A model generated the notes under the pieces. It was not told where the DNA came from. It made no database searches and worked only from the letters and a program-made list of their open reading frames with translations. DNA of 64,000 nt from the IMG/VR virus record IMGVR_UViG_3300020576_004720, positions 7,706 through 71,705 of that record; one strand, given 5' to 3'. Positions 7,500 to 46,143 of this stretch are shown piece after piece. Numbering within the stretch: the first letter of the stretch is position 1; each line of letters begins with the position of its first letter. The translations under genes were made by a program, and so were the position numbers. Source of the stretch: a virus.

Positions 7500-8018
7500 T
7501 TATCCAGTAACCTTCCTGGAAGAAATGGCACCACCATACACGGTACGCCTTTGTTCCAACCTGCGTTGGTTGCGATAAGACGTGGATGCATTCTTGAAGG
7601 AATCATTTGGAAGTTTAAACCATACTTCCCTTGTCCTTGCAGCCACATCCAAAATGAGGTTTTCACCAGAGTAACCACCTGTTTTGTCTTCATCGAAGTA
7701 CATTTCAGGCTCAAGTTTCTCTGCCTCTTGCTCTTTTCCAGCAGCCACTAAAGCATCGTACTTTTCATTGTACTTATCTTCCAGGGACTTAATCGTAGAT
7801 GTATGGATTTTAACTTCCTGCACATCATGTTGGTCAACAGGAATCATTTTTCCATCCAATTCCACATCCTGTGAACCCCTTACATAAGGAATAGGATCAC
7901 TGAGTTTCAGGATGAGTGTGGCACCATCACCCTCACTGTCGGGGACTTTCACAAAGGAATCCCATGTAAGCTCCATCTTATCAAATTTACTGATGGCAGC
8001 TAAGATACTTTTACGCAT
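7500..8018 (-). CDS. hypothetical protein (172 aa, acidic)
   Basis: ORF. Confidence 0.55.
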   Translation of the reverse strand: MRKSILAAISKFDKMELTWDSFVKVPDSEGDGATLILKLSDPIPYVRGSQDVELDGKMIPVDQHDVQEVKIHTSTIKSLEDKYNEKYDALVAAGKEQEAEKLEPEMYFDEDKTGGYSGENLILDVAARTREVWFKLPNDSFKNASTSYRNQRRLEQRRTVYGGAISSRKVTG

Positions 8019-36534: not shown

Positions 36535-37524
36535 ATGTCTTGTTTAGAAAATACACCTTGTAATCCTTGTTCTGAAAATAGCTATGATAATTGTGGTTGT
36601 TTAAACCCAACTACTTTTGAGTGCATAACACTTCCTGGTGTTCATTCAGCTCTTGGTATTACAAATGATATGAATGGGCTTCAAGTTTTAGAAGCTCTTG
36701 ATACTCTTATTGCAAATCTTGATATTCCTACTCCACCAAGTGGTTCAGATATATATGCAAAAGTTTCATCATCAGATGATACTGCAGATTATCTAAATAA
36801 CAAATTATTAGTAGGAAACTTCATGACTAAAACAGTCTTGAATCCTGGATTAAATGAAAAAATAAGATTTAATGTAGCTCCAGCTTCACTTATTTCAGCC
36901 GATAGTGGAAACTATCTTGAAATAGGTACAGATGGAAAATTAAGAGCAATTCCTCCAACCCCTACTATAAATATGTATGTACAAGGTGGTACAGGAGTCA
37001 CTGTAACAGGTACAGGTCCTGCAACAGATCCATTTATAGTATCAATTAATCCTTCTATTACAGCAACAAGAAAGTGCTTTGATGGAGTTTGGAGAGATGT
37101 TACATTAACAGCTACAGGAAATGCAAATGTAGTTTATGTATCTGGTACTCCTAAATATAGAGTAAGATTTGATGGAACTATAGAATTTAAAGGTTCTGCA
37201 ACATATACTGTAAATTTTGGAGCATATAGTGATCTTGCTGGAACTAGAAAAAGAACTGTTACTGTAGGAAATATTTCTACAATAACTGCTTTAGCAACTG
37301 GATGTGGTGTTTCTGCAGCGGAACTTCTTGGTACAGCAGACCTAAAATCTATTAACTATATAGACCAACCTGGAACTGGAGATCAAATAACTCAACAATA
37401 TGGTTATATTGTAAGAAAGAATGGAACAAATCTTATCTTAGAATTCCAATCAGCTTTTATAAATGCTACATCAAAACAAATTGTAGTAAATTTTGAAGGA
37501 GTAATAATTCATCCTAACATATAA
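36535..37524 (+). CDS. structural hypothetical protein (329 aa)
   Basis: ORF. Confidence 0.5.
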   Translation: MSCLENTPCNPCSENSYDNCGCLNPTTFECITLPGVHSALGITNDMNGLQVLEALDTLIANLDIPTPPSGSDIYAKVSSSDDTADYLNNKLLVGNFMTKTVLNPGLNEKIRFNVAPASLISADSGNYLEIGTDGKLRAIPPTPTINMYVQGGTGVTVTGTGPATDPFIVSINPSITATRKCFDGVWRDVTLTATGNANVVYVSGTPKYRVRFDGTIEFKGSATYTVNFGAYSDLAGTRKRTVTVGNISTITALATGCGVSAAELLGTADLKSINYIDQPGTGDQITQQYGYIVRKNGTNLILEFQSAFINATSKQIVVNFEGVIIHPNI

Positions 37525-37560
37525 TAAACTTGCAGTTTTCTTGGTTTCTGTAAAAAGTTT

Positions 37561-37590
37561 TGACCCTTGTTCTCAAGGGTCTTTTTTTAA
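37561..37590 (+). terminator. rho-independent terminator
   Basis: GACCCTTG-TTCT-CAAGGGTC followed by TTTTTTT. Confidence 0.7.
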
Positions 37591-37618
37591 AATAAATTTG
37601 GAAAATATAAAAACATTT
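37581..37618 (+). promoter_or_regulatory. promoter (AAATAAATTTGG - 20 nt - TATATTTG), family copy 1
   Basis: Matches the Bacteroidetes sigma-A consensus: -33 TTTG, -7 TAnnTTTG. Confidence 0.55.
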
Positions 37619-37637
37619 CGTATATTTGTATTCCAAA

Positions 37638-37682
37638 ACAGATTACTATGGCTTGTGGCTGTGGAAAACCTAAACCCAAACC
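37638..37682 (+). CDS. tiny ORF (14 aa, MACGCGKPKPKPKK); candidate leader peptide
   Basis: First ATG after promoter copy 1. Translated by hand. Confidence 0.25.
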
Positions 37683-37686
37683 TAAA

Positions 37687-37764
37687 AAATAAAAATATGT
37701 GGTTTATATTTGGAATCCTTTTAGGATTTTTTATAGGTAAAAATTTTGATAAGATCAAAGACTT
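37687..37764 (+). CDS. tiny hydrophobic ORF (25 aa, MWFIFGILLGFFIGKNFDKIKDLIL)
   Basis: Second short ORF between promoter copy 1 and the terminator at 37886. Confidence 0.3.
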
Positions 37765-37885
37765 AATTTTATGAAAAATAACTTTACACATACATGGCAA
37801 CCCACAACCCAGTGTCCATTTGGCATCTGCGAGGGTCTATGTATATGTATTAAAAAGTAAGCTTTTATTTTTTCCGATTCATACA

Positions 37886-37915
37886 CAAACCCTCAATAAC
37901 ATGAGGGTTTTTTAT
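37886..37915 (+). terminator. rho-independent terminator
   Basis: CCCTCA-ATAACA-TGAGGG followed by TTTTTTATTTT. Confidence 0.65.
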
Positions 37916-37961
37916 TTTATGGCGATGTAGGGAAGTCAGGTTTTTCCCACTAGCTTTGGGA

Positions 37962-38003
37962 TAAAAATAAATTTGGAAGTTCGAAAACTTTTTACTATAT
38001 TAG
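37962..38003 (+). promoter_or_regulatory. promoter family copy 2 (TTTG - 20 nt - TATATTAG) with an embedded hairpin AAGTT-CGAAA-ACTT
   Basis: Same AAATAAATTTGG leader as copy 1. It ends 4 nt before the ATG of HNH-1, so the mRNA is probably leaderless. Confidence 0.5.
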
Positions 38004-38007
38004 TAGT

Positions 38008-38571
38008 ATGAAAGTAAGTTTAATATGTCCTGTTTGTAAATCTAAATTTGAAAAGGAAGAGAAATATATAAATTTTAGTATCAAAAAAGATTGGAAAATT
38101 TATTGTTCAAATGAATGTAAGCATATAGGAAAAGCAAAAGAATATAATTATAAATGTGCAAATTGTGGTAAAGATTTGATAGTTACTCCTAGTAGAATTA
38201 AAAGGTCTAAAACAGGAAATTTATATTGTAGTAAAAAGTGTTCGACTATAAAAAACAATACTCTTTTTAAAAAATGGGAAAATCATCCTCAATATAAAAC
38301 TGGTATAGGTAGTTATAGATGGATAAAGATAAAATCAATGAAGGAATTAAAATGTGAGGAATGTAATTTTGATAACCCTTTAGCTTTAGAAGTTCATCAT
38401 AAAGATAGAAATAGAAAAAATAATAATCTTGATAACTTACAACTACTTTGTTGTAATTGTCATACAATAAAGCATAAAACAGGTAGTGGGCTAATTGGTA
38501 AGCCGCCACATTTGGGATGTGGACATCATGCAGAATCGTCCTCTGTCTACCTGACACAAAAGATTGAATAA
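38008..38571 (+). CDS. HNH homing endonuclease (HNH-1), with N-terminal Cys-rich zinc fingers
   Basis: LEVHHKDRNRKNNNLDNLQLLCCNCHTIKH (HNH motif) and CPVCKSKF...C...C. Confidence 0.8.
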   Translation: MKVSLICPVCKSKFEKEEKYINFSIKKDWKIYCSNECKHIGKAKEYNYKCANCGKDLIVTPSRIKRSKTGNLYCSKKCSTIKNNTLFKKWENHPQYKTGIGSYRWIKIKSMKELKCEECNFDNPLALEVHHKDRNRKNNNLDNLQLLCCNCHTIKHKTGSGLIGKPPHLGCGHHAESSSVYLTQKIE

Positions 38572-38625
38572 TTTAAGCGACTAAGTTATAAAATAGATGG
38601 TTCGAATCCATTCATTGCCACATAG

Positions 38626-38700
38626 GTCCATATGGCTGAGAGGTCAAAAGCAACAATCTGCAAAATTGTAAAACCGTTGGTTCAAATCCAACTATGGACT
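38626..38700 (+). tRNA. tRNA-Cys (GCA)
   Basis: Acceptor GTCCATA/TATGGAC, anticodon stem ACAAT/ATTGT with loop CTGCAAA, T-arm GTTGG-TTCAAAT-CCAAC. Confidence 0.75.
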
Positions 38701-38706
38701 CTAAAT

Positions 38707-38780
38707 GCCTCCTATGCAGATATGGTGCTGCGTCTGCCTTGTAAGCAGAAATAGAGAGTTTTCGAGTAACTCAGGAGGAT
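38707..38780 (+). tRNA. tRNA-Thr (TGT)
   Basis: D-arm GCAG/CTGC, anticodon stem TCTGC/GCAGA with loop CTTGTAA, T-arm GAGTT-TTCGAGT-AACTC. Positions 1 and 72 are a G-A mismatch. Confidence 0.65.
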
Positions 38781-38786
38781 CTAAAA

Positions 38787-38860
38787 GGTAACTAAGCAAT
38801 TGTTGGTCAATGCATCTGTTTGAAGAACAGACTAACTCAGTTCGAACCTGAGAGTTACCA
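38787..38860 (+). tRNA. tRNA-Phe (GAA)
   Basis: Acceptor GGTAACT/AGTTACC, anticodon stem TCTGT/ACAGA with loop TTGAAGA, T-arm CTCAG-TTCGAAC-CTGAG. Confidence 0.8.
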
Positions 38861-38865
38861 CAGAT

Positions 38866-38936
38866 ACCTCGTTGGTGTAATGGTAGCACAAGAGCTTCCA
38901 AACCTCTTGGAACCTTTTCGATTAGGGTACGAGGTG
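38866..38936 (+). tRNA. tRNA-Trp (CCA)
   Basis: Acceptor ACCTCGT/ACGAGGT, anticodon loop TTCCAAA (one C-C mismatch at the base of the anticodon stem), T-arm ACCTT-TTCGATT-AGGGT. Confidence 0.65.
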
Positions 38937-38959
38937 CAGGATACTGGATGAAGAAAAAT

Positions 38960-39032
38960 TCCAATATGGGGTAATTGGTAACCCGACTGACTTTGATTCA
39001 GTAGATTCTAGGTTCGAACCCTAGTATTGGAT
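38960..39032 (+). tRNA. tRNA-Gln (TTG)
   Basis: Acceptor TCCAATA/TATTGGA, anticodon stem ACTGA/TCAGT with loop CTTTGAT, T-arm CTAGG-TTCGAAC-CCTAG. Confidence 0.8.
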
Positions 39033-39034
39033 CT

Positions 39035-39107
39035 GGTGGTTATAGCTTAATGGTAGAGCGGTACATTGTGGCTGTATTATGTGAGGGTTCGAGTCCCTTT
39101 AATCACC
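39035..39107 (+). tRNA. tRNA-His (GTG), with G-1
   Basis: Acceptor GTGGTTA/TAATCAC preceded by an extra G that pairs with C73. Anticodon loop TTGTGGC. T-arm GAGGG-TTCGAGT-CCCTT. Confidence 0.75.
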
Positions 39108-39114
39108 CTGTAAA

Positions 39115-39187
39115 CCACTTTTAGTTAAACTGGAAATAACCTTTGACTACGGATCAAAAATTATCTGTTCGAATCAGATAAAGTGGT
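39115..39187 (+). tRNA. tRNA-Arg (ACG)
   Basis: Acceptor CCACTTT/AAAGTGG, anticodon stem TTTGA/TCAAA with loop CTACGGA, T-arm ATCTG-TTCGAAT-CAGAT. Confidence 0.75.
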
Positions 39188-39390
39188 CAAAAATATATAT
39201 CTTTGTAGTATGAGAAATATCACACTTTATACTGGAGTTGGTGGTTATATAATGTTTCAAGAGTCATTAGAACAAATAACTCTTGGGACTAGAAGAGTAT
39301 ATATAGGCAAAAAGGTCCCTAGAATACTAAGAAAAGTTCATAAGAAAATAGAAAAAGCAGAAAACGGAAAATATTTTTTTAGAACAAAAA

Positions 39391-39428
39391 AATAAATTTG
39401 GATTTTTAAAAAATACATTGTATATTTG
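39391..39428 (+). promoter_or_regulatory. promoter family copy 3 (AAATAAATTTGG - 20 nt - TATATTTG)
   Basis: Exact consensus. Confidence 0.55.
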
Positions 39429-39457
39429 CACTAATTAAAAGTTATAGACATTCACAA

Positions 39458-39544
39458 ATGCAATCTTTAAATATCATAGCGATGGTGAAAGGTAATATTG
39501 AGGATAGAAACTCAATAGGGTTTGTGTTGTCTTTCTGTAAGTGA
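39458..39544 (+). CDS. candidate leader peptide (28 aa, MQSLNIIAMVKGNIEDRNSIGFVLSFCK) upstream of the Lys-Val-Arg-Asn-Met...Gly-Glu-Asp-Ile tRNA array
   Basis: Short ORF between promoter copy 3 and the terminator at 39567-39600. Codons AAA/AAG, GTG, AGA, AAT/AAC, ATG, GGG/GGT, GAG, GAT and ATC/ATT/ATA correspond to the downstream tRNAs. Confidence 0.35.
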   Translation: MQSLNIIAMVKGNIEDRNSIGFVLSFCK

Positions 39545-39566
39545 GAGTTAAGAAAATAAAATACAC

Positions 39567-39600
39567 AAGCCCTTCCCAAAAAGAAGGGCTTTTTTATTTC
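39567..39600 (+). terminator. rho-independent terminator / attenuator immediately 5' of tRNA-Lys
   Basis: AAGCCCTTC-CCAAAAA-GAAGGGCTT followed by TTTTTATTTC. tRNA-Lys starts at the next base. Confidence 0.65.
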
Positions 39601-39674
39601 TCCTCTTAACTCAGTTGGCTAGAGTAGTAAACTTTTAATTTACGAGTCGTGGGTTCGAGTCCCTCAGGGGAGAC
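39601..39674 (+). tRNA. tRNA-Lys (TTT)
   Basis: Acceptor CTCCTCT/AGGGGAG with a G-U pair, D-arm ACTC/GAGT, anticodon stem GTAAA/TTTAC with loop CTTTTAA, T-arm GTGGG-TTCGAGT-CCCTC with one U-U mismatch. Confidence 0.7.
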
Positions 39675-39679
39675 ATATA

Positions 39680-39752
39680 GAGGATTAACTCAGTTGGCAG
39701 AGTGCTTGTATTACAAACAAGAAGTCAGGATCTCGGAATTCCTATCCTCTAC
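39680..39752 (+). tRNA. tRNA-Val (TAC), non-canonical T-loop
   Basis: Acceptor AGAGGAT/ATCCTCT, anticodon stem CTTGT/ACAAG with loop ATTACAA. T-arm AGGAT-CTCGGAA-TTCCT lacks the usual TTC. Confidence 0.6.
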
Positions 39753-39757
39753 ACAAG

Positions 39758-39830
39758 TCCTTGTAACTCAACGGATAGAGTATTTGCCTTCTAAGCAAAA
39801 AGTTGTAAGTTCGATTCTTACCAAGGATAC
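39758..39830 (+). tRNA. tRNA-Arg (TCT)
   Basis: Acceptor GTCCTTG/CAAGGAT, anticodon stem TTTGC/GCAAA with loop CTTCTAA, T-arm GTAAG-TTCGATT-CTTAC. Confidence 0.75.
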
Positions 39831-39871
39831 AGGTGGGTTACCTTTCCCCGTGGAGTTAAAAAAGGAGATGT

Positions 39872-39945
39872 GGGAAGTTAGCTCATGTTGGTAGAGCAAA
39901 TGACTGTTAATCATTAGGTGAAGGGATCGTCACCCTTACTTCCCT
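39872..39945 (+). tRNA. tRNA-Asn (GTT), unusual T-loop ATCGTCA
   Basis: Acceptor GGGAAGT/ACTTCCC, D-arm GCTC/GAGC, anticodon stem AATGA/TCATT with loop CTGTTAA, T-stem AAGGG/CCCTT. Confidence 0.7.
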
Positions 39946-39950
39946 CATAA

Positions 39951-40022
39951 TGTGAGGTAATGCAGCGGTAGCAGAAAAGGCTCATACCCTTTTAGTCGGG
40001 AGTTCGAATCTCCCCCTCGCAA
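39951..40022 (+). tRNA. tRNA-Met (CAT)
   Basis: Acceptor TGTGAGG/CCTCGCA, anticodon stem AAAGG/CCTTT with loop CTCATAC, T-arm GGGAG-TTCGAAT-CTCCC. Confidence 0.75.
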
Positions 40023-40046
40023 CAGAAAAATTACTATCTTTGCAAT

Positions 40047-40511
40047 ATGGAAAAATATTTTCGGACACAAGATGGTAAAATAGTAAATATCATCGAACAT
40101 ACGCTAGATCAGATTGAAAAATTCAATCATCTAGAAATATCTATCGGAACAGATAGTCAAGACTGGGGACAAGATACCGTTTATGTAACTTGTATAGCTT
40201 ATAGATATGGAAGAAGAGGTGCTCATTTTATTTACTTAAAAGAAGTTGTATCAAGAATAAAAGATTTTAGTCAATTTACAAGATTATATGGAGAAGGATT
40301 AAGAACTCTTGAAATACATGATACTTTGACTCAAGATATCCCTATTGCTGTTAAAGCTTTGGAATTTGATTTTGCAGATGCAAAGAAAACTATAAGTTCT
40401 AAATTAGTTTCTGCGTTTAAAGGTTATGCAAACTCAACTTTTAAAACTGGAGAAATGATAGCATGTAAGGCTGCAGATCACGTCATAAGACACCCTTCTG
40501 TATATAAATAA
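40047..40511 (+). CDS. hypothetical protein (154 aa) embedded in the tRNA island; weak RNase H-like/DUF458-like GTDSQ motif
   Basis: ORF. ISIGTDSQDWGQDTVYVTCIAY is the only suggestive motif. Confidence 0.45.
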   Translation: MEKYFRTQDGKIVNIIEHTLDQIEKFNHLEISIGTDSQDWGQDTVYVTCIAYRYGRRGAHFIYLKEVVSRIKDFSQFTRLYGEGLRTLEIHDTLTQDIPIAVKALEFDFADAKKTISSKLVSAFKGYANSTFKTGEMIACKAADHVIRHPSVYK

Positions 40512-40634
40512 GTGTTACTGATGTACACAGTGTCGTAGTCCCTCTTAAGCCTCTGATTCAAGCTCAAATGAAGAGTGTAATCGTAAAGTACACATAGTTA
40601 ATAGGTTCTATCGGGCGTACAAAAACCTAAACCT

Positions 40635-40708
40635 GCAGTAGTAGTTCAATTGGTAGAATGCCGTCCTTCCAAGTCGGAGGTTTGCAAGTTCGAGTCTTGT
40701 CTACTGCA
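40635..40708 (+). tRNA. tRNA-Gly (TCC)
   Basis: Acceptor GCAGTAG/CTACTGC, D-arm GTTC-AATTGGTA-GAAT, anticodon loop CTTCCAA, T-arm GCAAG-TTCGAGT-CTTGT. Confidence 0.7.
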
Positions 40709-40711
40709 CAT

Positions 40712-40785
40712 GCCATGTTTGACTAGCGGTCTAGGTCAACACTCTTTCACGGTGTTATTCATGGGTTCGAATCCCATACATGGTA
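40712..40785 (+). tRNA. tRNA-Glu (TTC)
   Basis: Acceptor GCCATGT/ACATGGT with G1-U72, anticodon stem ACACT/GGTGT with loop CTTTCAC, T-arm ATGGG-TTCGAAT-CCCAT. Confidence 0.75.
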
Positions 40786-40789
40786 CTAA

Positions 40790-40864
40790 CGCCTATTAGG
40801 GGAGTTGGTCGTCCCTGTTCCTCTGTCTAAGGAAAGATCCTCGGTTCGAATCCGTGATAGGCGA
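40790..40864 (+). tRNA. tRNA-Asp (GTC)
   Basis: Acceptor CGCCTAT/ATAGGCG, D-stem GGGG/CCCT, anticodon stem TTCCT/AGGAA with loop CTGTCTA, T-arm CTCGG-TTCGAAT-CCGTG. Confidence 0.7.
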
Positions 40865-40867
40865 CAT

Positions 40868-40944
40868 GCTGATGTATCCTCTCTGGCTTATATCCAGTTG
40901 AAAAGGTAGTTGGTTACACATTAGTTCGAATCTAATCATCAGTA
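40868..40944 (+). tRNA. irregular tRNA-like gene (77 nt), possible tRNA-Ile(TAT)-like; D-arm missing or displaced
   Basis: Acceptor GCTGATG/CATCAGT and T-arm ATTAG-TTCGAAT-CTAAT are clear. The only anticodon-like hairpin is CTGG-CTTATAT-CCAG, which gives TAT. A D-loop-like GTAGTTGGTTAC sits where the variable region should be. Confidence 0.4.
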
Positions 40945-40947
40945 CAA

Positions 40948-40984
40948 AATAAATTTGATAAATTCGAACTTTTATCTTATATTG
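40948..40984 (+). promoter_or_regulatory. promoter family copy 4 (TTTG - 20 nt - TATATTG) with an embedded TTCGAAC hairpin; drives HNH-2
   Basis: AAATAAATTTGATAAATTCGAACTTTTATCTTATATTG is homologous to the HNH-1 promoter region. Confidence 0.5.
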
Positions 40985-41004
40985 TATATATAAAGTATAC
41001 AATA

Positions 41005-41550
41005 ATGGTTAAAAAGACAAAAATTTTGGAACTTTTTCATAAAGGATTTAGTTCTGCTGAAATATCTAAACAGTTAAGATGCTCTAAATCAACAGTAAGT
41101 TATCATTGTTCAAAATTTATTAACAAAGTTGATAAATATACACCTGAATTATTAAAAATATATCAGGATGCTTATGATCAAGGATTATCTTTTAAAGGTG
41201 TTGCTGATAAATTTAAAGTATCAAGACAATTATTAGGTAAAAAATTAAAAGCAAGAAAACTTACAAAACTTCAAATTAAACAAAAAGCTGACAAAAGAAA
41301 AAAAGGCTATAGGTTAAAAGTAAAAGAACAATGTGTAGAATATAAAGGAGGGAAATGTTGTAAATGTGGATATAATAAATGTCTTGCTGCTTTAGAATTT
41401 CATCATATTGATCCTAATAAAAAAGATTATACTATAAGTGGTGGAACTAAAAGTTTTCAAAACTTAAAGTCTGAATTAGATAAATGTATTTTAGTGTGTA
41501 AAAATTGTCATGCAGAGATACATTTTCAAATAATTAATAATGACTTGTAG
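41005..41550 (+). CDS. HNH homing endonuclease (HNH-2) with an N-terminal helix-turn-helix
   Basis: LEFHHIDPNKKDY...CKNCHAEIH (HNH motif) and AEISKQLRCSKSTVSYH (HTH-like). Confidence 0.8.
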   Translation: MVKKTKILELFHKGFSSAEISKQLRCSKSTVSYHCSKFINKVDKYTPELLKIYQDAYDQGLSFKGVADKFKVSRQLLGKKLKARKLTKLQIKQKADKRKKGYRLKVKEQCVEYKGGKCCKCGYNKCLAALEFHHIDPNKKDYTISGGTKSFQNLKSELDKCILVCKNCHAEIHFQIINNDL

Positions 41551-41613
41551 CTCAAATGGTAGAGCGTTACACTGATAATGTAAAGGTAGTGAGATCGTTA
41601 CTCACCAAGTCAA
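41541..41613 (+). tRNA. tRNA-Ile (GAT), overlapping the last 10 nt of HNH-2
   Basis: Acceptor TGACTTG/CAAGTCA, D-arm GCTC-AAATGGTA-GAGC, anticodon stem TTACA/TGTAA with loop CTGATAA, T-arm GTGAG-ATCGTTA-CTCAC. Confidence 0.75.
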
Positions 41614-41770
41614 CTAAGGGGGTGCATGTTCCAAGGCTGGCGAAGTAGTTTTGCAAACTATTTGAGAAGATTTCGATTATCTTCATCTCCACAAAATAAA
41701 TTTTGGAAGAAAAAAGAAAAGTTGTATTTTTGCCTTGGTTTTTATAGGCATCATTGTCACGGAATAGAAA

Positions 41771-41805
41771 GTCCTTCTAGAAATAGAAGGATTTTTTATT
41801 TTGAC
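41771..41805 (+). terminator. rho-independent terminator
   Basis: AGTCCTTCTA-GAAA-TAGAAGGATT followed by TTTTTATTTT. Confidence 0.65.
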
Positions 41806-42178
41806 TAATATCCCTTATTTTTGCCAAAAGGTTTTTTCCAACTTTTATCCTTTAGCACAATAAAAGTTATCTATTAAAACTAGTATGAAAGTAACTAATT
41901 CATACGATAGGATGTATAAATATCAAGCAATGTCTATCCGTGACAACTTGTACCTGCAAGAAAAAACCAAGTAGGCTAAAATACATTCCTCCGTGAAAAT
42001 ATAAAGTCCTCATAATCAACAGCCTACATGGTGAAAAGATGAGGCACAGGGACACGGGAGTTTTAGGTTAGATGAGTCTATCTAAATGCTTGAAGATAGA
42101 AACCCTACTTGCAGGGATAAACGGAGGTGTGTTTGGTAATATCAGAAATATTTAGTATATTATAATAAAAGTATAAAA

Positions 42179-43978
42179 ATGGCAATATATTACGTAGATT
42201 CCAGTTACACTGGTTCAACATCTAATGGTGGTATAAATACACCTTGGAAGTCTCTATCAAATGTAAATTCAAATATGAGTTTACTTCAACCTGGAGACCA
42301 AGTCTTATTAAAAAGAGGACAGAGTTATTCAGGAACTCTAAATATAACAAGATCTGGTAATTCATCAGCAAGAATTATTTTTGGTGCATATGGAACAGGG
42401 GCACAACCTAAATTATTAGGTACAGGTGCATCTATTAATGTTCTTATATCTATGTATAATAGATCATATATTACACTGCAAGACTGGACTATAGTAGATG
42501 AGTCTATATCTGCAGTAGATAGAACAATACAGGCAAAAATTCAAAGAGCTATTGTTCCAGATTCATCTACTAATATTACTATTACAAGATGTAATTTTGA
42601 TAGAACTGGTTGTGCGTTGTATACTACTGGTGATAATACAACTTTTACATATTCTACAGTACAGAATATGAGGATGATTAAAAACACCAAAGATGGTCCG
42701 CCTCCCGGAAATGATGATGACTATGGTGCTAATGGTGTAATTATATCTTCTTCTAATAATATTATTACAAATAATATATTTGAAGGGTGTTGGGCAGATT
42801 CATATGATTATGAATATGATGGTGGAGCAGTAGATATTTACGCTGATGTAGATTGTAGTAATAACCTTATAGCATACAATAGTTTTAATGATTGCAATGG
42901 TGTTATTGAAATTGGTGGTTCAGGTGGACGTACTGTAACCGGAACTGTATTAGCATACAATAAATGTACAAATAATGGGTCTTTTATGTATGTGAGTAAT
43001 TCAGGCACTTTTGCTACAAATGTAATTAATACAAGTATACTTAATAATGTTATTGTCGAAACTCAACCATTTAGAGTATCAAGTAATGCAATGATAGGAT
43101 ATAAGAGCACTCCTACTACAGCAGCTACTTTAACTGTAAAGAATAATATATTTCAATTATATGGTACTGTAGATGTCTATAGAGCACAGTGGAATAATAC
43201 TACTCTTATTCATGAAAATAATGTATACAAATTAAATACATCAGGAACAGGTTCATTATTAAATATTACAGCAAACCCTAGTGAGATTGTAACAAGTGCT
43301 AACTTTTGGACCTCAACTTCAGGAAATGCAAAAGATTGGAACTTCTCTCCTTTAGTTGGCAGTGTATTAATAAATGCAGGAACAAATGTGGGGTACTCTG
43401 TAGATTTTGCAGGTGTTGCTGTTAGTAATCCTCCTGAAATAGGTATTTTAGAATATGTTGCTGGTACAACAACTACTACAAGTTCTACTTCAAGTACAAG
43501 TAGTACAAGTACAACTTCTACTTCAAGTACAAGTACAACTACAACTACAACTTTAGTTCCTACTACAACAACTACTACTTCAAGTACATCAACAACATCA
43601 ACAAGTAGTACAACTACCACTAGTTCAACAACTACAACTACAAGTTCTAGTACAACTACGACTACAACTATAAATGAACCTATTCAAGGAACTATTTCTT
43701 TATCAGGAACATTACCAAGAAGAAGAGTTTCAAATATTTGTTGGAATATAAATACAAATGTACCTGTAGTAAAATATATTGAAAGAATGACAAATAATGT
43801 ATTTACAACTATTTACACTATTCCTGGTGGTTATAGTACTACAGCATCTAACTGTAGGGATATCAAATTAAGTTTAACCATTAATACTTTTAGAATTAAA
43901 GTAGTAGATAGTTATGGAAATATAAAATACTCTCAGACTATAAGTTATAATAATCAGGGATTTTTAATAGATGTTTAA
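42179..43978 (+). CDS. tailspike / polysaccharide-depolymerase-like protein (right-handed parallel beta-helix + Ser/Thr-rich linker + C-terminal domain)
   Basis: Repeated NxxIxxNxF-type pectate-lyase-fold repeats (ITITRCNFDRTGCALYTTGDN..., IISSSNNIITNNIFEGCW...). About 70-aa linker made only of Thr/Ser. Confidence 0.55.
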   Translation: MAIYYVDSSYTGSTSNGGINTPWKSLSNVNSNMSLLQPGDQVLLKRGQSYSGTLNITRSGNSSARIIFGAYGTGAQPKLLGTGASINVLISMYNRSYITLQDWTIVDESISAVDRTIQAKIQRAIVPDSSTNITITRCNFDRTGCALYTTGDNTTFTYSTVQNMRMIKNTKDGPPPGNDDDYGANGVIISSSNNIITNNIFEGCWADSYDYEYDGGAVDIYADVDCSNNLIAYNSFNDCNGVIEIGGSGGRTVTGTVLAYNKCTNNGSFMYVSNSGTFATNVINTSILNNVIVETQPFRVSSNAMIGYKSTPTTAATLTVKNNIFQLYGTVDVYRAQWNNTTLIHENNVYKLNTSGTGSLLNITANPSEIVTSANFWTSTSGNAKDWNFSPLVGSVLINAGTNVGYSVDFAGVAVSNPPEIGILEYVAGTTTTTSSTSSTSSTSTTSTSSTSTTTTTTLVPTTTTTTSSTSTTSTSSTTTTSSTTTTTSSSTTTTTTINEPIQGTISLSGTLPRRRVSNICWNINTNVPVVKYIERMTNNVFTTIYTIPGGYSTTASNCRDIKLSLTINTFRIKVVDSYGNIKYSQTISYNNQGFLIDV

Positions 43979-44016
43979 AATAAATTTGGTTTTTGTAAAT
44001 TATTATACTATATTTG
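43979..44016 (+). promoter_or_regulatory. promoter family copy 5 (AAATAAATTTGG - 20 nt - TATATTTG)
   Basis: Exact consensus. The ATG of the leader ORF lies 5 nt downstream. Confidence 0.55.
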
Positions 44017-44020
44017 CATC

Positions 44021-44092
44021 ATGAAAAATAACAAACTATATAGTTCCTTATCGTATCTCTTACAAAGTAAGAGCAGGGATTATATTGTTTAA
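44021..44092 (+). CDS. candidate leader peptide (23 aa, MKNNKLYSSLSYLLQSKSRDYIV) of the Leu-Leu-Ser-Ser-Tyr tRNA operon
   Basis: 12 of 23 codons are Leu/Ser/Tyr (CTA, TTA x2, CTC, TAT x3, AGT x2, AGC, TCC, TCG). This matches the five downstream tRNAs. A terminator follows 25 nt after the stop. Confidence 0.4.
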   Translation: MKNNKLYSSLSYLLQSKSRDYIV

Positions 44093-44117
44093 AAATAATT
44101 ATATTGTTTACAATAAA

Positions 44118-44149
44118 ACCCTGCCAATTTTGGTGGGGTTTTTCTTTTT
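44118..44149 (+). terminator. rho-independent terminator / attenuator abutting tRNA-Leu
   Basis: ACCCTGCCAA-TT-TTGGTGGGGT (10-bp stem with two G-U pairs) followed by TTTTTCTTTTT. tRNA-Leu starts at the next base. Confidence 0.65.
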
Positions 44150-44235
44150 GGGGATGTGGTGGAATTGATAGACACCCTAGACTTAGGATCTAGTGTTAAT
44201 AAACTGGCGTGAGAGTTTGAATCTCTCCATCCCTA
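44150..44235 (+). tRNA. tRNA-Leu (TAG), type II with long variable arm
   Basis: 86 nt. Acceptor GGGGATG/CATCCCT, anticodon stem CTAGA/TCTAG with loop CTTAGGA, T-arm GAGAG-TTTGAAT-CTCTC. Confidence 0.7.
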
Positions 44236-44240
44236 CAAAT

Positions 44241-44314
44241 GGTCTAGTAAGCTAACTGGGAAAGCTATAAAACTTAAAATTTTATGTTTGTGAGTTCGAA
44301 TCTCACCTAGACTA
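44241..44314 (+). tRNA. tRNA with anticodon TAA (Leu UUA) but short type I architecture (74 nt)
   Basis: Acceptor GGTCTAG/CTAGACT, anticodon stem TAAAA/TTTTA with loop CTTAAAA, T-arm GTGAG-TTCGAAT-CTCAC. Variable region is only 5 nt. Confidence 0.6.
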
Positions 44315-44318
44315 CAAT

Positions 44319-44405
44319 GGTAAGGTGCTCAAGTGGTCATAAGAGCCTCGCTTTGAAAGCCTGTGTGATGTAAAAGTCCCGTGGGTTCGAATCCCACCCT
44401 TGCCT
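44319..44405 (+). tRNA. tRNA-Ser (TGA), type II
   Basis: 87 nt. Acceptor GGTAAGG/CCTTGCC, anticodon loop TTTGAAA (imperfect stem), 17-nt variable arm, T-arm GTGGG-TTCGAAT-CCCAC. Confidence 0.6.
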
Positions 44406-44410
44406 CAAAT

Positions 44411-44494
44411 GGAGAGTTGCAGGAATTGGTAAACTGTTCTGTTTGCTAAACAGAAGATGTAAAAGTCGCAAGAGTTCGAATCTTGTACTCTCCT
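44411..44494 (+). tRNA. tRNA-Ser (GCT), type II
   Basis: 84 nt. Acceptor GGAGAGT/ACTCTCC, anticodon stem TCTGT/ACAGA with loop TTGCTAA. Its 15-nt variable arm resembles that of the neighbouring Ser tRNA. Confidence 0.65.
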
Positions 44495-44504
44495 CATAAT
44501 CAAT

Positions 44505-44576
44505 GGGATAGAAAGCAGGGCACTTAGCAACGTCTGTAAAACGTAGGCTCGTGAGTTTCGAGTACTCCCTATCCCA
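44505..44576 (+). tRNA. tRNA-Tyr (GTA)-like, short (72 nt) with a weak D-arm
   Basis: Acceptor GGGATAG/CTATCCC, anticodon stem ACGT/ACGT with loop CTGTAAA, T-arm TGAGT-TTCGAGT-ACTCC. No long variable arm. Confidence 0.5.
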
Positions 44577-44675
44577 CTTTTTCTTTTTATCATCTAATGA
44601 TTAAATATTGTTTACTTCAATAATTAATGTAAAAAATTATTTTTTTATATGAATACTTTTTCATAATTTTGTATT

Positions 44676-45308
44676 ATGATAGATTCAGATTTAAAAAGAT
44701 GTGGAGTTTATAAAATTACAAACTTAAAAAATAATAAGGTATATATCGGTAGTACTACAAAAACATTATATAGTAGAAAAAGGTCCCATTTTTTAAAATT
44801 AAAAAATAATATTCATTTCAATACACATCTTCAGTTGTCATTTAATAAATATGGCGAGAATTTCTTTACATTTGAAATATTGGCAATATGTAAAGAAGAA
44901 CATACAGTAATATTAGAAAATTTCTTTATTAAATTATACTCTTCGCATTTAAAAGATAAAGGTTATAATATGGCTATTCCATTAGAATTACCAGTTCCAA
45001 ATATTTCAAATAAAGGTAAAAAATTTTCTGAAGATCATAAAGAGAAAATATCATATTCATTAAAAAGAAATTGCTATTGGAAAAATAAAAAACAGCCTCA
45101 ATCTATGATCTCTAAAAGATCTGAAAAAAATAAAAAACTTATTCAACAAATATGTAAAAGTACTGGTAAAATTTTAAATACCTGGAGTTTTGAAGAAGCC
45201 AAGAAGAATGGTTATTATCCTTCTGCTGCTAGAAATTATATACAGGGCAAGAGAAAGTCTTATAAAGGATTTGATTGGAAAATAATAAAAAAATTATATG
45301 ATAAGTAA
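44676..45308 (+). CDS. GIY-YIG homing endonuclease
   Basis: GVYKITNLKNNKVYIGSTT (GIY-...-YIG) near the N-terminus. Confidence 0.75.
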   Translation: MIDSDLKRCGVYKITNLKNNKVYIGSTTKTLYSRKRSHFLKLKNNIHFNTHLQLSFNKYGENFFTFEILAICKEEHTVILENFFIKLYSSHLKDKGYNMAIPLELPVPNISNKGKKFSEDHKEKISYSLKRNCYWKNKKQPQSMISKRSEKNKKLIQQICKSTGKILNTWSFEEAKKNGYYPSAARNYIQGKRKSYKGFDWKIIKKLYDK

Positions 45309-46143
45309 AAAGGAAATAGAAAAATTTATTTTGGTTCGTAAGGGGTATCTTAAAAAATCTCCACATGTTACATTAGAGGCAATTTGGAAAAGTCTTCCAA
45401 AAACTACTGCTAAAACTATAAAAGAAGCACAAAAAGAACTAGAACTTGTAAAAAGTGTTCAATCTGAGCTTAGAGAAGCTGATAAAATTATTCATTCTAC
45501 ATCAGATCTTGCCTTATTAGAAACCTACAATTTAATACATAAAGAAAGAGAAAGACCTAAAAGAAAACTATTCTTTGACATAGAGGTTAGTCCAAATATT
45601 GTAACTTCTTGGAGAATTGGTTCAGATATAAAACTTTCACATGAAAATATTATACAAGAAAGGGCGGTCATATGTATTTGTTGGAAATGGTCAGATTCTG
45701 ATAAAGTAGAATCTTTACAATGGAAAGATGGAGATGATTATGAAATGTTAGTAAAATTTGCTAAAATCATAGATTCTGCAGATGAAACAGTTACTCAAAA
45801 TGGAGATTCTTTTGATATTAAATGGTTGAGAACTAGATGTTTATATCATAGAATTGAACTCTCTCCAAAGTTTAACTCTATAGATACTTTAAAAATGGCA
45901 AGAGCAGGTTTTAAATTTAATTCAAATAAACTTGATTATATGGGACAATTCCTAGGTCTTGGTGAAAAAATTAAAACTGAACCAGATTTATGGAAAAATA
46001 TTGTACTAAAGAATTGTAAAGTATCTATGAAAAAAATGATAGATTATTGTAAACAGGATGTAAATCTTTTAGAACTAGTTTATAATGAATTACAAAGTTA
46101 CTCACCTATTAAAAAGTTTAAATATAAGATCCCTCTGAAGTGA
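45298..46143 (+). CDS. DEDDy-type 3'-5' exonuclease (DnaQ/family-B proofreading-like), standalone
   Basis: Exo I LFFDIEV, Exo II NGDSFDIKWL, Exo III YCKQDVNLLELVY. Confidence 0.6.
   Translation: MISKKEIEKFILVRKGYLKKSPHVTLEAIWKSLPKTTAKTIKEAQKELELVKSVQSELREADKIIHSTSDLALLETYNLIHKERERPKRKLFFDIEVSPNIVTSWRIGSDIKLSHENIIQERAVICICWKWSDSDKVESLQWKDGDDYEMLVKFAKIIDSADETVTQNGDSFDIKWLRTRCLYHRIELSPKFNSIDTLKMARAGFKFNSNKLDYMGQFLGLGEKIKTEPDLWKNIVLKNCKVSMKKMIDYCKQDVNLLELVYNELQSYSPIKKFKYKIPLK

Follow-up and report, generated by a model that had tools for sequence, protein, structure and literature searches.

What decides when a phage transcribes its tRNA genes? Why phages carry tRNA arrays at all is a long-standing question, and the usual answers are that they compensate for codon usage, replace host tRNAs that have been degraded, or evade anticodon nucleases. 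A locus in a viral DNA of 64,000 nucleotides (IMG/VR record IMGVR_UViG_3300020576_004720, positions 7,706 to 71,705; this whole stretch is called the window, and its own numbering is used below) raises the question of control. At 43979-44576, a promoter, a short open reading frame (ORF) rich in Leu, Ser, and Tyr codons, and an intrinsic terminator stand in front of tRNA genes for Leu, Ser, and Tyr. An earlier reading of the letters alone (the sequence-only reading) had taken this arrangement for an attenuator. I performed a computational analysis of the locus and its relatives. In summary, 43979-44149 is very likely a ribosome-mediated (leader-peptide) transcription attenuator gating the Leu(TAG)-Leu(TAA)-Ser(TGA)-Ser(GCT)-Tyr(GTA) block, and two like units would serve the other tRNA blocks of the window. 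The observations behind this assignment are the architecture of the locus, its conservation, the covariation of its helices, and the match between leader codons and tRNAs. The features of the locus, called locus C here, are the following.

43979 to 44016, plus strand: promoter of the Bacteroidota sigma-A type, with an A-rich element and a −33 element TTTG (43985-43988), a 20-nt spacer, and a −7 box TATATTTG (44009-44016).
44021 to 44092, plus strand: leader ORF C, 23 codons, MKNNKLYSSLSYLLQSKSRDYIV, predicted to be leaderless (from the ORF list; ATG and frame kept in 18 homologous leaders).
44036 to 44062, plus strand: regulatory run of nine codons, CTA TAT AGT TCC TTA TCG TAT CTC TTA (L Y S S L S Y L L), with the five codon boxes of the downstream tRNAs all represented.
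44033 to 44048, plus strand: region 1, the 5′ strand of the anti-antiterminator hairpin P1, overlapping the regulatory codons (minimum-energy fold).
44073 to 44090, plus strand: region 2, in the ORF 5′ of the stop codon, with region 1 or the terminator 5′ arm as its partner (folding).
44110 to 44126, plus strand: region 3, the terminator 5′ arm (44115-44126) and five bases upstream, the antiterminator partner of region 2 (folding).
44115 to 44149, plus strand: intrinsic terminator, a 12-bp G+C-rich stem AAAACCCUGCCA/UGGUGGGGUUUU with the loop AUUU and a T tract at 44143-44149 (−16.6 kcal/mol).
44150 to 44236, plus strand: tRNA-Leu(TAG), the first regulated gene, beginning one base past the T tract (ARAGORN, Rfam).
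44241 to 44315, plus strand: tRNA-Leu(TAA) (ARAGORN, Rfam).
44319 to 44406, plus strand: tRNA-Ser(TGA) (ARAGORN, Rfam).
44411 to 44495, plus strand: tRNA-Ser(GCT) (ARAGORN, Rfam).
44501 to 44575, plus strand: tRNA-Tyr(GTA)-like gene, atypical and below default thresholds (ARAGORN -ps90 only; poor D arm).

The sequence-only reading had placed a consensus promoter at 43979-44016. A promoter does fit there, while its motif is of the Bacteroidota sigma-A type and not the E. coli sigma-70 consensus. A sigma-70 scan of the window did not have this site among its predicted promoters, and an E. coli-type promoter was rejected because the scan missed the site and the Bacteroidota motif fits it. The motif AATAAATTTG-N17-23-TANNTTTG has three matches in the 64-kb window (37591, 39391, and 43979) against 0.03 expected, and each of them precedes one of three leaders. 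In Flavobacterium psychrophilum, the TAnnTTTG (−7) box spans −12 to −5 (PMC9723704), and thus the predicted +1 falls on the first base of the ATG (44021). A leaderless mRNA is therefore a reasonable reading of the predicted start; about 5.5% of mRNAs in Flavobacteria are leaderless (PMC9723704).

The ORF at 44021-44092 encodes the 23-residue peptide previously read from it, in which Leu, Ser, and Tyr (4, 5, and 3 residues) do account for 12 of the 23 positions. The same three amino acids make up 18.8% of codons in the long genes of the phage. The leader codons listed earlier are all present, but CTC had been left out of that list. The nine-codon Leu/Ser/Tyr run is the longest among the 801 plus-strand ATG ORFs of the window, and the six-frame translation has four runs of 9 or 10 elsewhere; the weight of the argument rests on conservation in relatives, not on this single run. 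A strong terminator with tRNA-Leu(tag) on the very next base had also been claimed, and both points hold: the hairpin occupies 44115-44142, the T tract ends at 44149, and the tRNA starts at 44150. A sequence scan found no TAnnTTTG box between leader C and tRNA-Leu, where the terminator adjoins the tRNA without a spacer. For want of a spacer, leader C remains joined to tRNA-Leu in any read-through transcript. As to the five-gene array Leu-Leu-Ser-Ser-Tyr, the first four genes stand. The tRNA-Tyr(gta) at 44501-44575 was missed by default ARAGORN and by Rfam at E<=1, being sub-threshold in the window; relatives have a canonical tRNA-Tyr(gta) at this position.

Is this arrangement kept in other phages? 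Since the neighbouring genes bear CrAss_Ring_1 and CrAss_Ring_2 domains and the nearest cultured relatives in protein searches are distant Flavobacterium and Cellulophaga phages, the window (from a source contig of ~122 kb) can be assigned to a crAss-like phage that is uncultured and whose host is a member of the Bacteroidota. Hundreds of homologues exist for the exonuclease gene 3′ of the array. Contigs whose exonuclease is ~60-65% identical (a range that applies to the relatives retrieved by protein) keep the same tRNA array in the same order 5′ of the exonuclease gene: Pro Thr Cys Phe Trp Gln His Arg (block A), Lys Val Arg Asn Met and then Gly Glu Asp Ile Ala (block B), and Leu Leu (Leu) Ser Ser Tyr (block C). 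From these and other relatives, 18 distinct leaders 5′ of the tRNA-Leu that opens block C were collected, five of them from one exact-pattern IMG/VR scan. The near-identical strains L023-L028 carry no substitutions in the leader and are thus uninformative for conservation.

Other searches gave little. A nucleotide search of public phage genomes returned only fragments of tRNAs and homing endonucleases and no close relatives, protein-based scans of IMG/VR gave siphovirus-type exonucleases or nothing, and a scan of genome contigs gave only the siphovirus-type exonuclease, in Bacteroidota and other metagenome-assembled genomes. Cellulophaga phage phi17:2 and phage csAssE-Sib have no tRNA array in the region syntenic to the ring-protein gene, and thus no cultured model was identified. 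The exact tRNA-Leu pattern also matched an unrelated jumbo phage (L021:4140-4180, L022:4150-4192) having a near-identical 5′ part of tRNA-Leu(tag). In that contig, a terminator-like hairpin adjoins tRNA-Leu(tag) without a leader ORF. Thus, a terminator beside a tRNA is not by itself diagnostic of an attenuator.

Every relative with DNA 5′ of the tRNA-Leu that opens block C was found to have a short ORF rich in Leu, Ser, and Tyr. The homologous peptides include MKKLYTYYSLSLLSLNGLARNTM, MKKTFTYYLSLSLSLESSG, MKKTFTYYSSLLLSLRESWLG, MKKFNTYYSSLSLLLSKTQAGKGV, MMILSSYYSSLSLYQASGNRVRT, MKQYLSYSSLSLLSNRAGYGM, and MKKNLSYSYLSSLLLNKSQGKLCEEDDCK. An ORF with its start and stop between the promoter and the first tRNA is present in 18/18 homologous leaders, and the amino-acid bias noticed in the window recurs in all 18 as 9-12 consecutive Leu/Ser/Tyr codons whose codon sequences differ. 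In a MAFFT alignment of 11 leaders, the ATG is invariant and every gap within the run has a length divisible by three. In 18/18, a terminator follows (−13.6 to −20.0 kcal/mol). The distance from the ATG to tRNA-Leu is 119-147 nt in 15 of the 18 leaders and 182 nt in L142, while L035 and L037 have an HNH gene inserted between leader C and tRNA-Leu. The leaders differ freely in where they stop and in their C-terminal sequences. In L115 and L121, the ATG of leader C overlaps the stop codon of the upstream ORF (TAATG); this overlap in several relatives suggests translational coupling.

Does the run match the tRNAs beyond its amino acids? It had been said that the leader uses exactly the codons read by the five tRNAs, which, at the level of amino acids, comes close to a tautology. 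A stricter form of the statement was borne out in the 13 leaders tabulated, all of which contain the five codon boxes TTR, CTN, TCN, AGY, and TAY corresponding to the five tRNA species of the block; for one random Leu/Ser/Tyr run of such length, the chance of containing all five is 0.34-0.56. Frame 0 of the run consists of exactly 3 amino acids in 13/13 with a varying codon order, whereas frames +1 and +2 of these leaders have 5-9 amino acids (6 and 7 in the window), mostly with stops. A covariance model made from 11 leaders recovered two held-out leaders (84 and 52 bits) and had no match in control loci without an array. Likewise, no ORF with a Leu/Ser/Tyr run was found in the crAss-like relatives without an array (L139 and L140).

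Could the hairpin only terminate the upstream 599-aa gene, the small ORF being an accident of AT-rich sequence? That gene ends at 43978 and no other terminator lies before 44115, and the six-frame translation does contain other Leu/Ser/Tyr runs of 8-10. However, a strong promoter lies between the gene end and the terminator, and leader C is kept in relatives whose upstream neighbour is a different gene or tRNA-Ala. The five codon boxes, the recovery by the covariance model, and the rarity of leader B and the block-residue table given below also speak against an accident. This explanation is already contradicted by the comparative data and is hardly credible.

Does the leader RNA have the alternative structures of an attenuator? 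The window leader RNA folds better than 200/200 shuffles (z = −4.1). Its minimum-energy fold consists of P1 (44033-44048 : 44075-44090), whose 5′ strand is made of the Leu/Ser/Tyr codons, and then the terminator. In 11/11 leaders folded, P1 plus the terminator is the minimum-energy structure and the 3′ strand of P1 is region 2. A stalled ribosome was then modelled as a 29-nt footprint in the middle of the run, with the transcript cut 5′ of the terminator 3′ arm. Under this model, the segment 44073-44088 of the window pairs with the segment 44110-44124 of the terminator 5′ arm, and pairing of region 2 with the terminator 5′ arm was predicted in all 11 leaders. The window pairs are GCAGGG (44073-78) with CCCUGC (44119-24), UU (44080-81) with AA (44117-18), and UAUUGU (44083-88) with ACAAUA (44110-15). 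A structure competing with the terminator, which had been sought by folding, is thus present as region 2 paired with the terminator 5′ arm. Together with the leader bias kept in relatives, this predicted structure supports the attenuation interpretation. The direct repeat TTATATTGTTTA, which had been proposed as the antiterminator, is present at 44080-44091 and 44099-44110, but the core of the antiterminator is the GCAGGG : CCCUGC pairing and the first copy of the repeat only extends it. As the core element the repeat was rejected, since copies in direct orientation do not pair with each other and relatives do not conserve them.

The duplex of region 2 with its own terminator arm averages −12.5 kcal/mol versus about −5 +/- 2 for shuffled region 2, and the complementarity beats shuffles at p<=0.014 in 16/18 leaders. 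Several classes of covarying antiterminators were found, namely CAGGG:CCCUG, GCUAGGA:UCCUGGC, GCUGGGG:CCCCAGC, GAGAAUGGG:CCCAUUCUC, and GAGAUUGGGA:UCCCGAUCUC. RNAalifold on the MAFFT alignment recovered the terminator only, and the support for P1 and the antiterminator comes from per-sequence folding, realignment with a covariance model, and pair counts. This covariance model was made from P1 and the terminator only, and the sequences were realigned to it, so that the alignment is not fitted to the antiterminator. The nine antiterminator pairs are paired in 66% of the cells versus 23-44% after the 3′ partner has been shifted by 1-3 columns, and 5/9 pairs are compensatory. P1 and the terminator, to both of which the alignment is fitted, have 85.7% of the cells paired, 18/26 compensatory pairs, and 0/500 shuffles as good. 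The two helices of P1 in this alignment are 84% paired with 10/16 compensatory pairs, and the terminator stem shows covariation in 8/10 pairs. In all leaders folded, region 2 lies within the ORF, at or 5′ of the stop codon. Thus, a ribosome that has passed the run would occlude region 2, while a stalled one would leave it free.

Is locus C the only such unit in the window? The other two matches to the promoter motif also precede a leader, a terminator, and a tRNA block, and the device is thus more general than the sequence-only reading had seen, with three units in the window. The features of units A and B are the following.

37591 to 37628, plus strand: promoter of unit A, with the same motif as at locus C (motif match).
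37771 to 37860, plus strand: leader A, MKNNFTHTWQPTTQCPFGICEGLCICIKK, with the run FTHTWQPTTQCPF, which uses only amino acids with tRNAs in block A.
37887 to 37916, plus strand: terminator of leader A, AAACCCUCA/UGAGGGUUU and a T tract; its predicted antiterminator partner GAGGGU is inside the ORF.
38480 to 39188, plus strand: tRNA block A, comprising Pro, Cys, Thr, Phe, Trp, Gln, His, and Arg(ACG) (ARAGORN, Rfam).
39391 to 39428, plus strand: promoter of unit B (motif match).
39458 to 39544, plus strand: leader B, MQSLNIIAMVKGNIEDRNSIGFVLSFCK, with the core AMVKGNIEDR, the ten block-B amino acids in one copy each.
39567 to 39599, plus strand: terminator of leader B, adjoining tRNA-Lys at 39600; predicted antiterminator AGGGUUUGUGU : ACACAAGCCCU.
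39600 to 41692, plus strand: tRNA block B, comprising Lys, Val, Arg(TCT), Asn, Met, Gly, Glu, Asp, an Ile(TAT)-like gene, Ile(GAT), and an Ala-like gene (ARAGORN, Rfam), broken up by an RNaseH-like gene and an HNH gene.

Leader A has 13 consecutive codons only for Phe, Thr, His, Trp, Gln, Pro, and Cys, and no other run of this kind in the window is as long; it also has a conserved Cys-rich tail. The core of leader B has Ala, Met, Val, Lys, Gly, Asn, Ile, Glu, Asp, and Arg once each. Relatives keep both families, leader A as HTWFTCTQCP-type peptides and leader B with the cores MIVDNLIEAGRK, MIVRNILGADEK, MIVDNGINGRADEK, and MNKKVEGRDAI. How rare is such a core? Twelve-residue windows containing all ten block-B amino acids occur 22 times in 2.17 million six-frame codons, and 12 of these 22 are leader B copies. 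When the leader residues of eight genomes were tabulated against the decoding tRNA block, the 3x3 table gave a chi-square of 175.6 (p = 7e-37, a value inflated by the relatedness of the genomes). Between them, the three leaders divide up the full set of 20 amino acids in exactly the same way as the tRNA blocks. In the window, leaders A and B also fold with the same alternative of region 2 and terminator; the CEG of leader A is encoded by UGC GAG GGU, which pairs with ACCCUC of the leader A terminator. The leader-C covariance model matches leader A units at an E of about 1e-3 (37767-37918 in the window), and thus the attenuators are paralogues.

The partition also has a regularity of its own. 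In the window (38480-44578) and in L030, L032, L033, L115, L120, L121, and L143, block C (Leu, Ser, and Tyr) is exactly the bacterial set of class II tRNAs with a long variable arm. In the same arrays, the block B amino acids have purine-first codons (A D E G I K M N V and R as AGR), and the block A amino acids have pyrimidine-first codons (C F H P Q W and R as CGN), plus Thr. In a 118-kb IMG/VR contig (L146:7051-8000), the Leu/Ser/Tyr block is directly followed by Pro and Thr of block A; thus, the block order varies between lineages, each block keeping its own leader. Unit A also contains two small ORFs 5′ of leader A (37650-37775, 3′ of the promoter at 37591). One is MACGCGKPKPKPKK; the other, a hydrophobic 25-mer, has a stop codon overlapping the ATG of leader A (ATGA), which looks like translational coupling.

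Might the three ORFs instead encode functional micropeptides, with the adjacency to tRNAs merely reflecting gene order? The conserved ORF positions, the invariant ATG, and the Cys-rich tail of leader A would be in line with this. However, the parts conserved outside the runs coincide with region 2, as the CEG of leader A does, the stop positions and C-termini are free to vary, and a composition mirroring the downstream tRNA set is not what micropeptides would predict. I regard this explanation as extremely unlikely. Another candidate is a small structured RNA of about 129 nt from the promoter to the terminator that acts in trans, the ORF being incidental or secondary. The stable folding of the leader RNA and a promoter-plus-terminator unit without an ORF at 41694-41800 may be cited for it, and RNAs released by attenuators can act in trans, as reported for rnTrpL (PMC6614838). 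On the other hand, no Rfam family matches at the gathering score, and a constraint on RNA only would explain neither a frame 0 confined to Leu, Ser, and Tyr amid varying nucleotides nor three leaders dividing the 20 amino acids as the tRNA blocks do. A trans-acting RNA fits as an added function of the attenuator, not as its replacement; in the latter role it is very unlikely.

How might the attenuator work? The host RNA polymerase would start at the Bacteroidota-type promoter, giving a transcript whose 5′ end is at or next to the ATG of the 23-codon ORF. A ribosome moving without delay through the nine Leu/Ser/Tyr codons would cover region 2 (44073-44090), and the terminator would form. If the ORF is not translated, region 2 would pair with region 1 (44033-44048), and the terminator would also form. 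With the terminator at 44115-44149 formed, transcription would halt one base before tRNA-Leu. When decoding of TTR, CTN, TCN, AGY, or TAY is slow, the ribosome would stall in the run and cover region 1, leaving region 2 free. Free region 2 would pair with the terminator 5′ arm, and the polymerase would read through into the tRNA genes, from whose transcript RNase P would free the tRNAs. The outcome would be a negative feedback on the supply of exactly the tRNA species sensed. Two further units of the same design may control the other blocks, the three leaders jointly sampling all 20 amino acids. That the ORF is translated, that ribosomes stall and polymerases read through, that RNase P processes the transcript, and which physiological signal is sensed are all inferred from the observed architecture.

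Several points weigh against this mechanism. The first concerns the energies. With a stalled ribosome on the full-length RNA, the terminator is preferred (−20.6 kcal/mol); the antiterminator attains −15.9 kcal/mol only as long as the 3′ arm has yet to be made, and an antiterminator forced on the full-length RNA has −18.1 versus a minimum of −34.5 kcal/mol. Since the terminator is thermodynamically favoured in every modelled state, the switch would need kinetic control, e.g., a putative polymerase pause. Two of the 18 leaders (L120 and L146) have only weak antiterminator complementarity, and the leader sequences are related by descent, so that combined p-values overstate their independence. The second concerns the sensor. 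Classical attenuators use longer tandem codon runs. Each tRNA species is sampled here by one to three codons only, and the sensitivity may therefore be low. TCC and CTC require wobble or superwobble reading by the phage UGA and UAG anticodons, and the tRNA-Tyr of the window is degenerate. The signal is ambiguous as well, because more tRNA would not relieve stalls caused by amino-acid starvation. The third concerns insertions. Homing-endonuclease genes with promoters of their own lie between the attenuator and the tRNAs in block A of the window and in the Leu/Ser/Tyr block of L035 and L037. Thus, control by the attenuator can be bypassed and is not indispensable.

In a further alternative, the unit depends on translation without having termination as its output. 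Ribosome occupancy would alter the processing or stability of the pre-tRNA (access of RNase P or RNase E, protection of the 5′ end) or act via Rho, and the hairpin with the T tract would be a constitutive partial terminator. The conserved ORF and its match with the tRNA block require translation without specifying the output, and both the dominance of the terminator and the direct joining of the leader to tRNA-Leu suit such a unit. However, a region 2 that is complementary to the terminator 5′ arm and covaries with it in several classes is not predicted by pure processing, and the 1:2, 2:3, 3:4 geometry is that of the classical attenuators. This alternative seems unlikely, and termination control by the leader ribosome remains the preferred reading.

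Are similar devices known? All the features of a leader-peptide attenuator that can be looked for in a sequence appear to be present. The E. coli attenuators trpL, hisL, leuL, and pheL likewise have a promoter-proximal short ORF with regulatory codons, and classical attenuators share the three overlapping helices 1:2, 2:3, and 3:4 followed by an intrinsic terminator. As in the trp/his geometry, region 2 is at or before the stop codon, so that an undelayed ribosome would lead to termination and a stalled one to read-through. Multivalent leaders are known in E. coli, namely thrL (Thr, Ile) and ilvL (Leu, Val, Ile). They are a precedent for sampling several amino acids, while the phage leaders sample 3, 7, and 10 amino acids, often once each. 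The main difference lies in the target: classical attenuators regulate biosynthetic enzymes, whereas the phage units would regulate tRNAs and thereby feed back on the decoding capacity that is sensed. Moreover, the phage unit is viral, its mRNA is predicted to be leaderless, and no sequence or Rfam similarity to classical attenuators was found. The pheM leader-peptide attenuator controls pheST, an aminoacyl-tRNA synthetase. It resembles the phage unit in that a component of the translation apparatus is attenuated, but its target is the synthetase for one amino acid, while the phage targets are tRNAs, with 5 to about 11 genes per block.

T-box riboswitches also sense the state of a particular tRNA and choose between terminator and antiterminator. 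However, a T-box binds uncharged tRNA directly without translation and has a stem I specifier and a T-box sequence, whereas the sensor of the phage unit is an ORF. No T-box match was found by cmscan at E<=1 over 37500-46000 or at E<=10 over 43960-44160. No Rfam family reached its gathering threshold over the leader of locus C, and the leader families (Leu_leader, His_leader, Thr_leader, Trp_leader, Phe_leader, Bacteroid-trp, and others) were all below theirs. The best leader-type scores, Phe_leader with 24 bits (threshold 55) and His_leader with 13 bits (threshold 49), are both driven by the terminator. Small RNA families were below threshold as well (rli38, 32.7 bits versus 49; MicX, 23 versus 75).

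The Bacteroid-trp motif, reportedly described by Weinberg in 2010, is said to be a case of leader-peptide attenuation in Bacteroidota. Signs of leader-peptide attenuation 5′ of amino-acid biosynthesis operons have been described in Flavobacteria, and candidates were reported for F. psychrophilum (PMC9723704). These cases come from the same host phylum, represent the same kind of device, and show that the host machinery can support such control. They sit 5′ of amino-acid biosynthesis operons, whereas the phage units sit 5′ of tRNAs. A literature search for leader peptides or attenuation in connection with phage, viral, or crAss tRNA genes or arrays found no description, most subscription journals being outside its coverage. 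To my knowledge, no attenuator is known in front of tRNA genes.

Some further observations concern the array and its surroundings. Homing-endonuclease genes lie in or beside the array, namely HNH genes at 38008-38571 and 41005-41550 and a GIY-YIG gene at 44676-45308. The two HNH genes of the window are preceded by a copy of the promoter element AAATAAATTTGG (37965, and 40947 with one mismatch) and run into the next tRNA gene. In L035:500-1000 and L037:8610-9143, the HNH gene lies exactly between the leader-C terminator and tRNA-Leu, and L037 keeps a duplicated 5′ half of this tRNA. The unit at 41694-41800 consists of a promoter-like element AAATAAATTTTG ... TATTTTTG and, ~60 nt later, a terminator-like hairpin, with neither an ORF nor a tRNA. 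It sits directly 3′ of the tRNA-Ala-like sequence, a position occupied in L033 and L034 by the leader C promoter. The unit may be a remnant from the insertion of the 599-aa gene, or a small RNA. The 599-aa protein itself (42179-43978) contains a long linker rich in Ser and Thr, and its PHROG match is weak.

Four tRNA-like genes of the window are sub-threshold: Val(tac) at 39679-39751 is below default detection and seen by Rfam only, and Ile(tat) at ~40853-40945, Ala(tgc) at 41622-41692, and Tyr(gta) at 44501-44575 are seen by ARAGORN -ps90 only. They may be atypical but functional, or decaying copies. In relatives, a tRNA with the anticodon CTA ('Pyl' in ARAGORN) or an odd '(ttca)' tRNA was found at L041:337, L115:2626, L118:236, and L143:3065. 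These may be suppressors, and in that case some members of the clade might have reassigned a stop codon. Over 43900-44680, L023 matches the window with 100% identity, yet the exonucleases of the two share only 84% identity, a sign of mosaicism through recombination. In tRNA-Leu(taa), L024 and L025 have strain variants at 44263, 44270, and 44282; A44270G and T44282C look like a compensatory change from A-T to G-C in the anticodon stem.

What would the three units mean for these phages? It is fairly likely that an environmental crAss-like clade (about 90-170 kb in its long contigs) has a self-regulating decoding supplement, in which three paralogous attenuators interrogate all 20 amino acids (including every Leu/Ser/Tyr codon box) and each opens only the block that would relieve the stall. 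These would be the first attenuated tRNA genes, forming a demand-driven tRNA homeostat. Classical attenuation would thereby extend to new targets, the RNA genes of the translation apparatus, and to viruses. Sampling ten amino acids once each would be an unusually compact natural design, and portable sensors specific for an amino acid or a tRNA might be obtained for Bacteroidota. A short ORF mirroring the downstream tRNA set may also serve as an annotation rule and may reveal more cases in viral and cellular tRNA clusters. If the reading is true, phage tRNA expression is conditional on translational demand, with a sensor that can be read straight from the sequence, and the depletion or cleavage of one tRNA species should open one specific attenuator only. 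The homeostat could plausibly act as a counter-measure to the depletion or cleavage of host tRNAs in infection, e.g., by host shut-off or anticodon nucleases.

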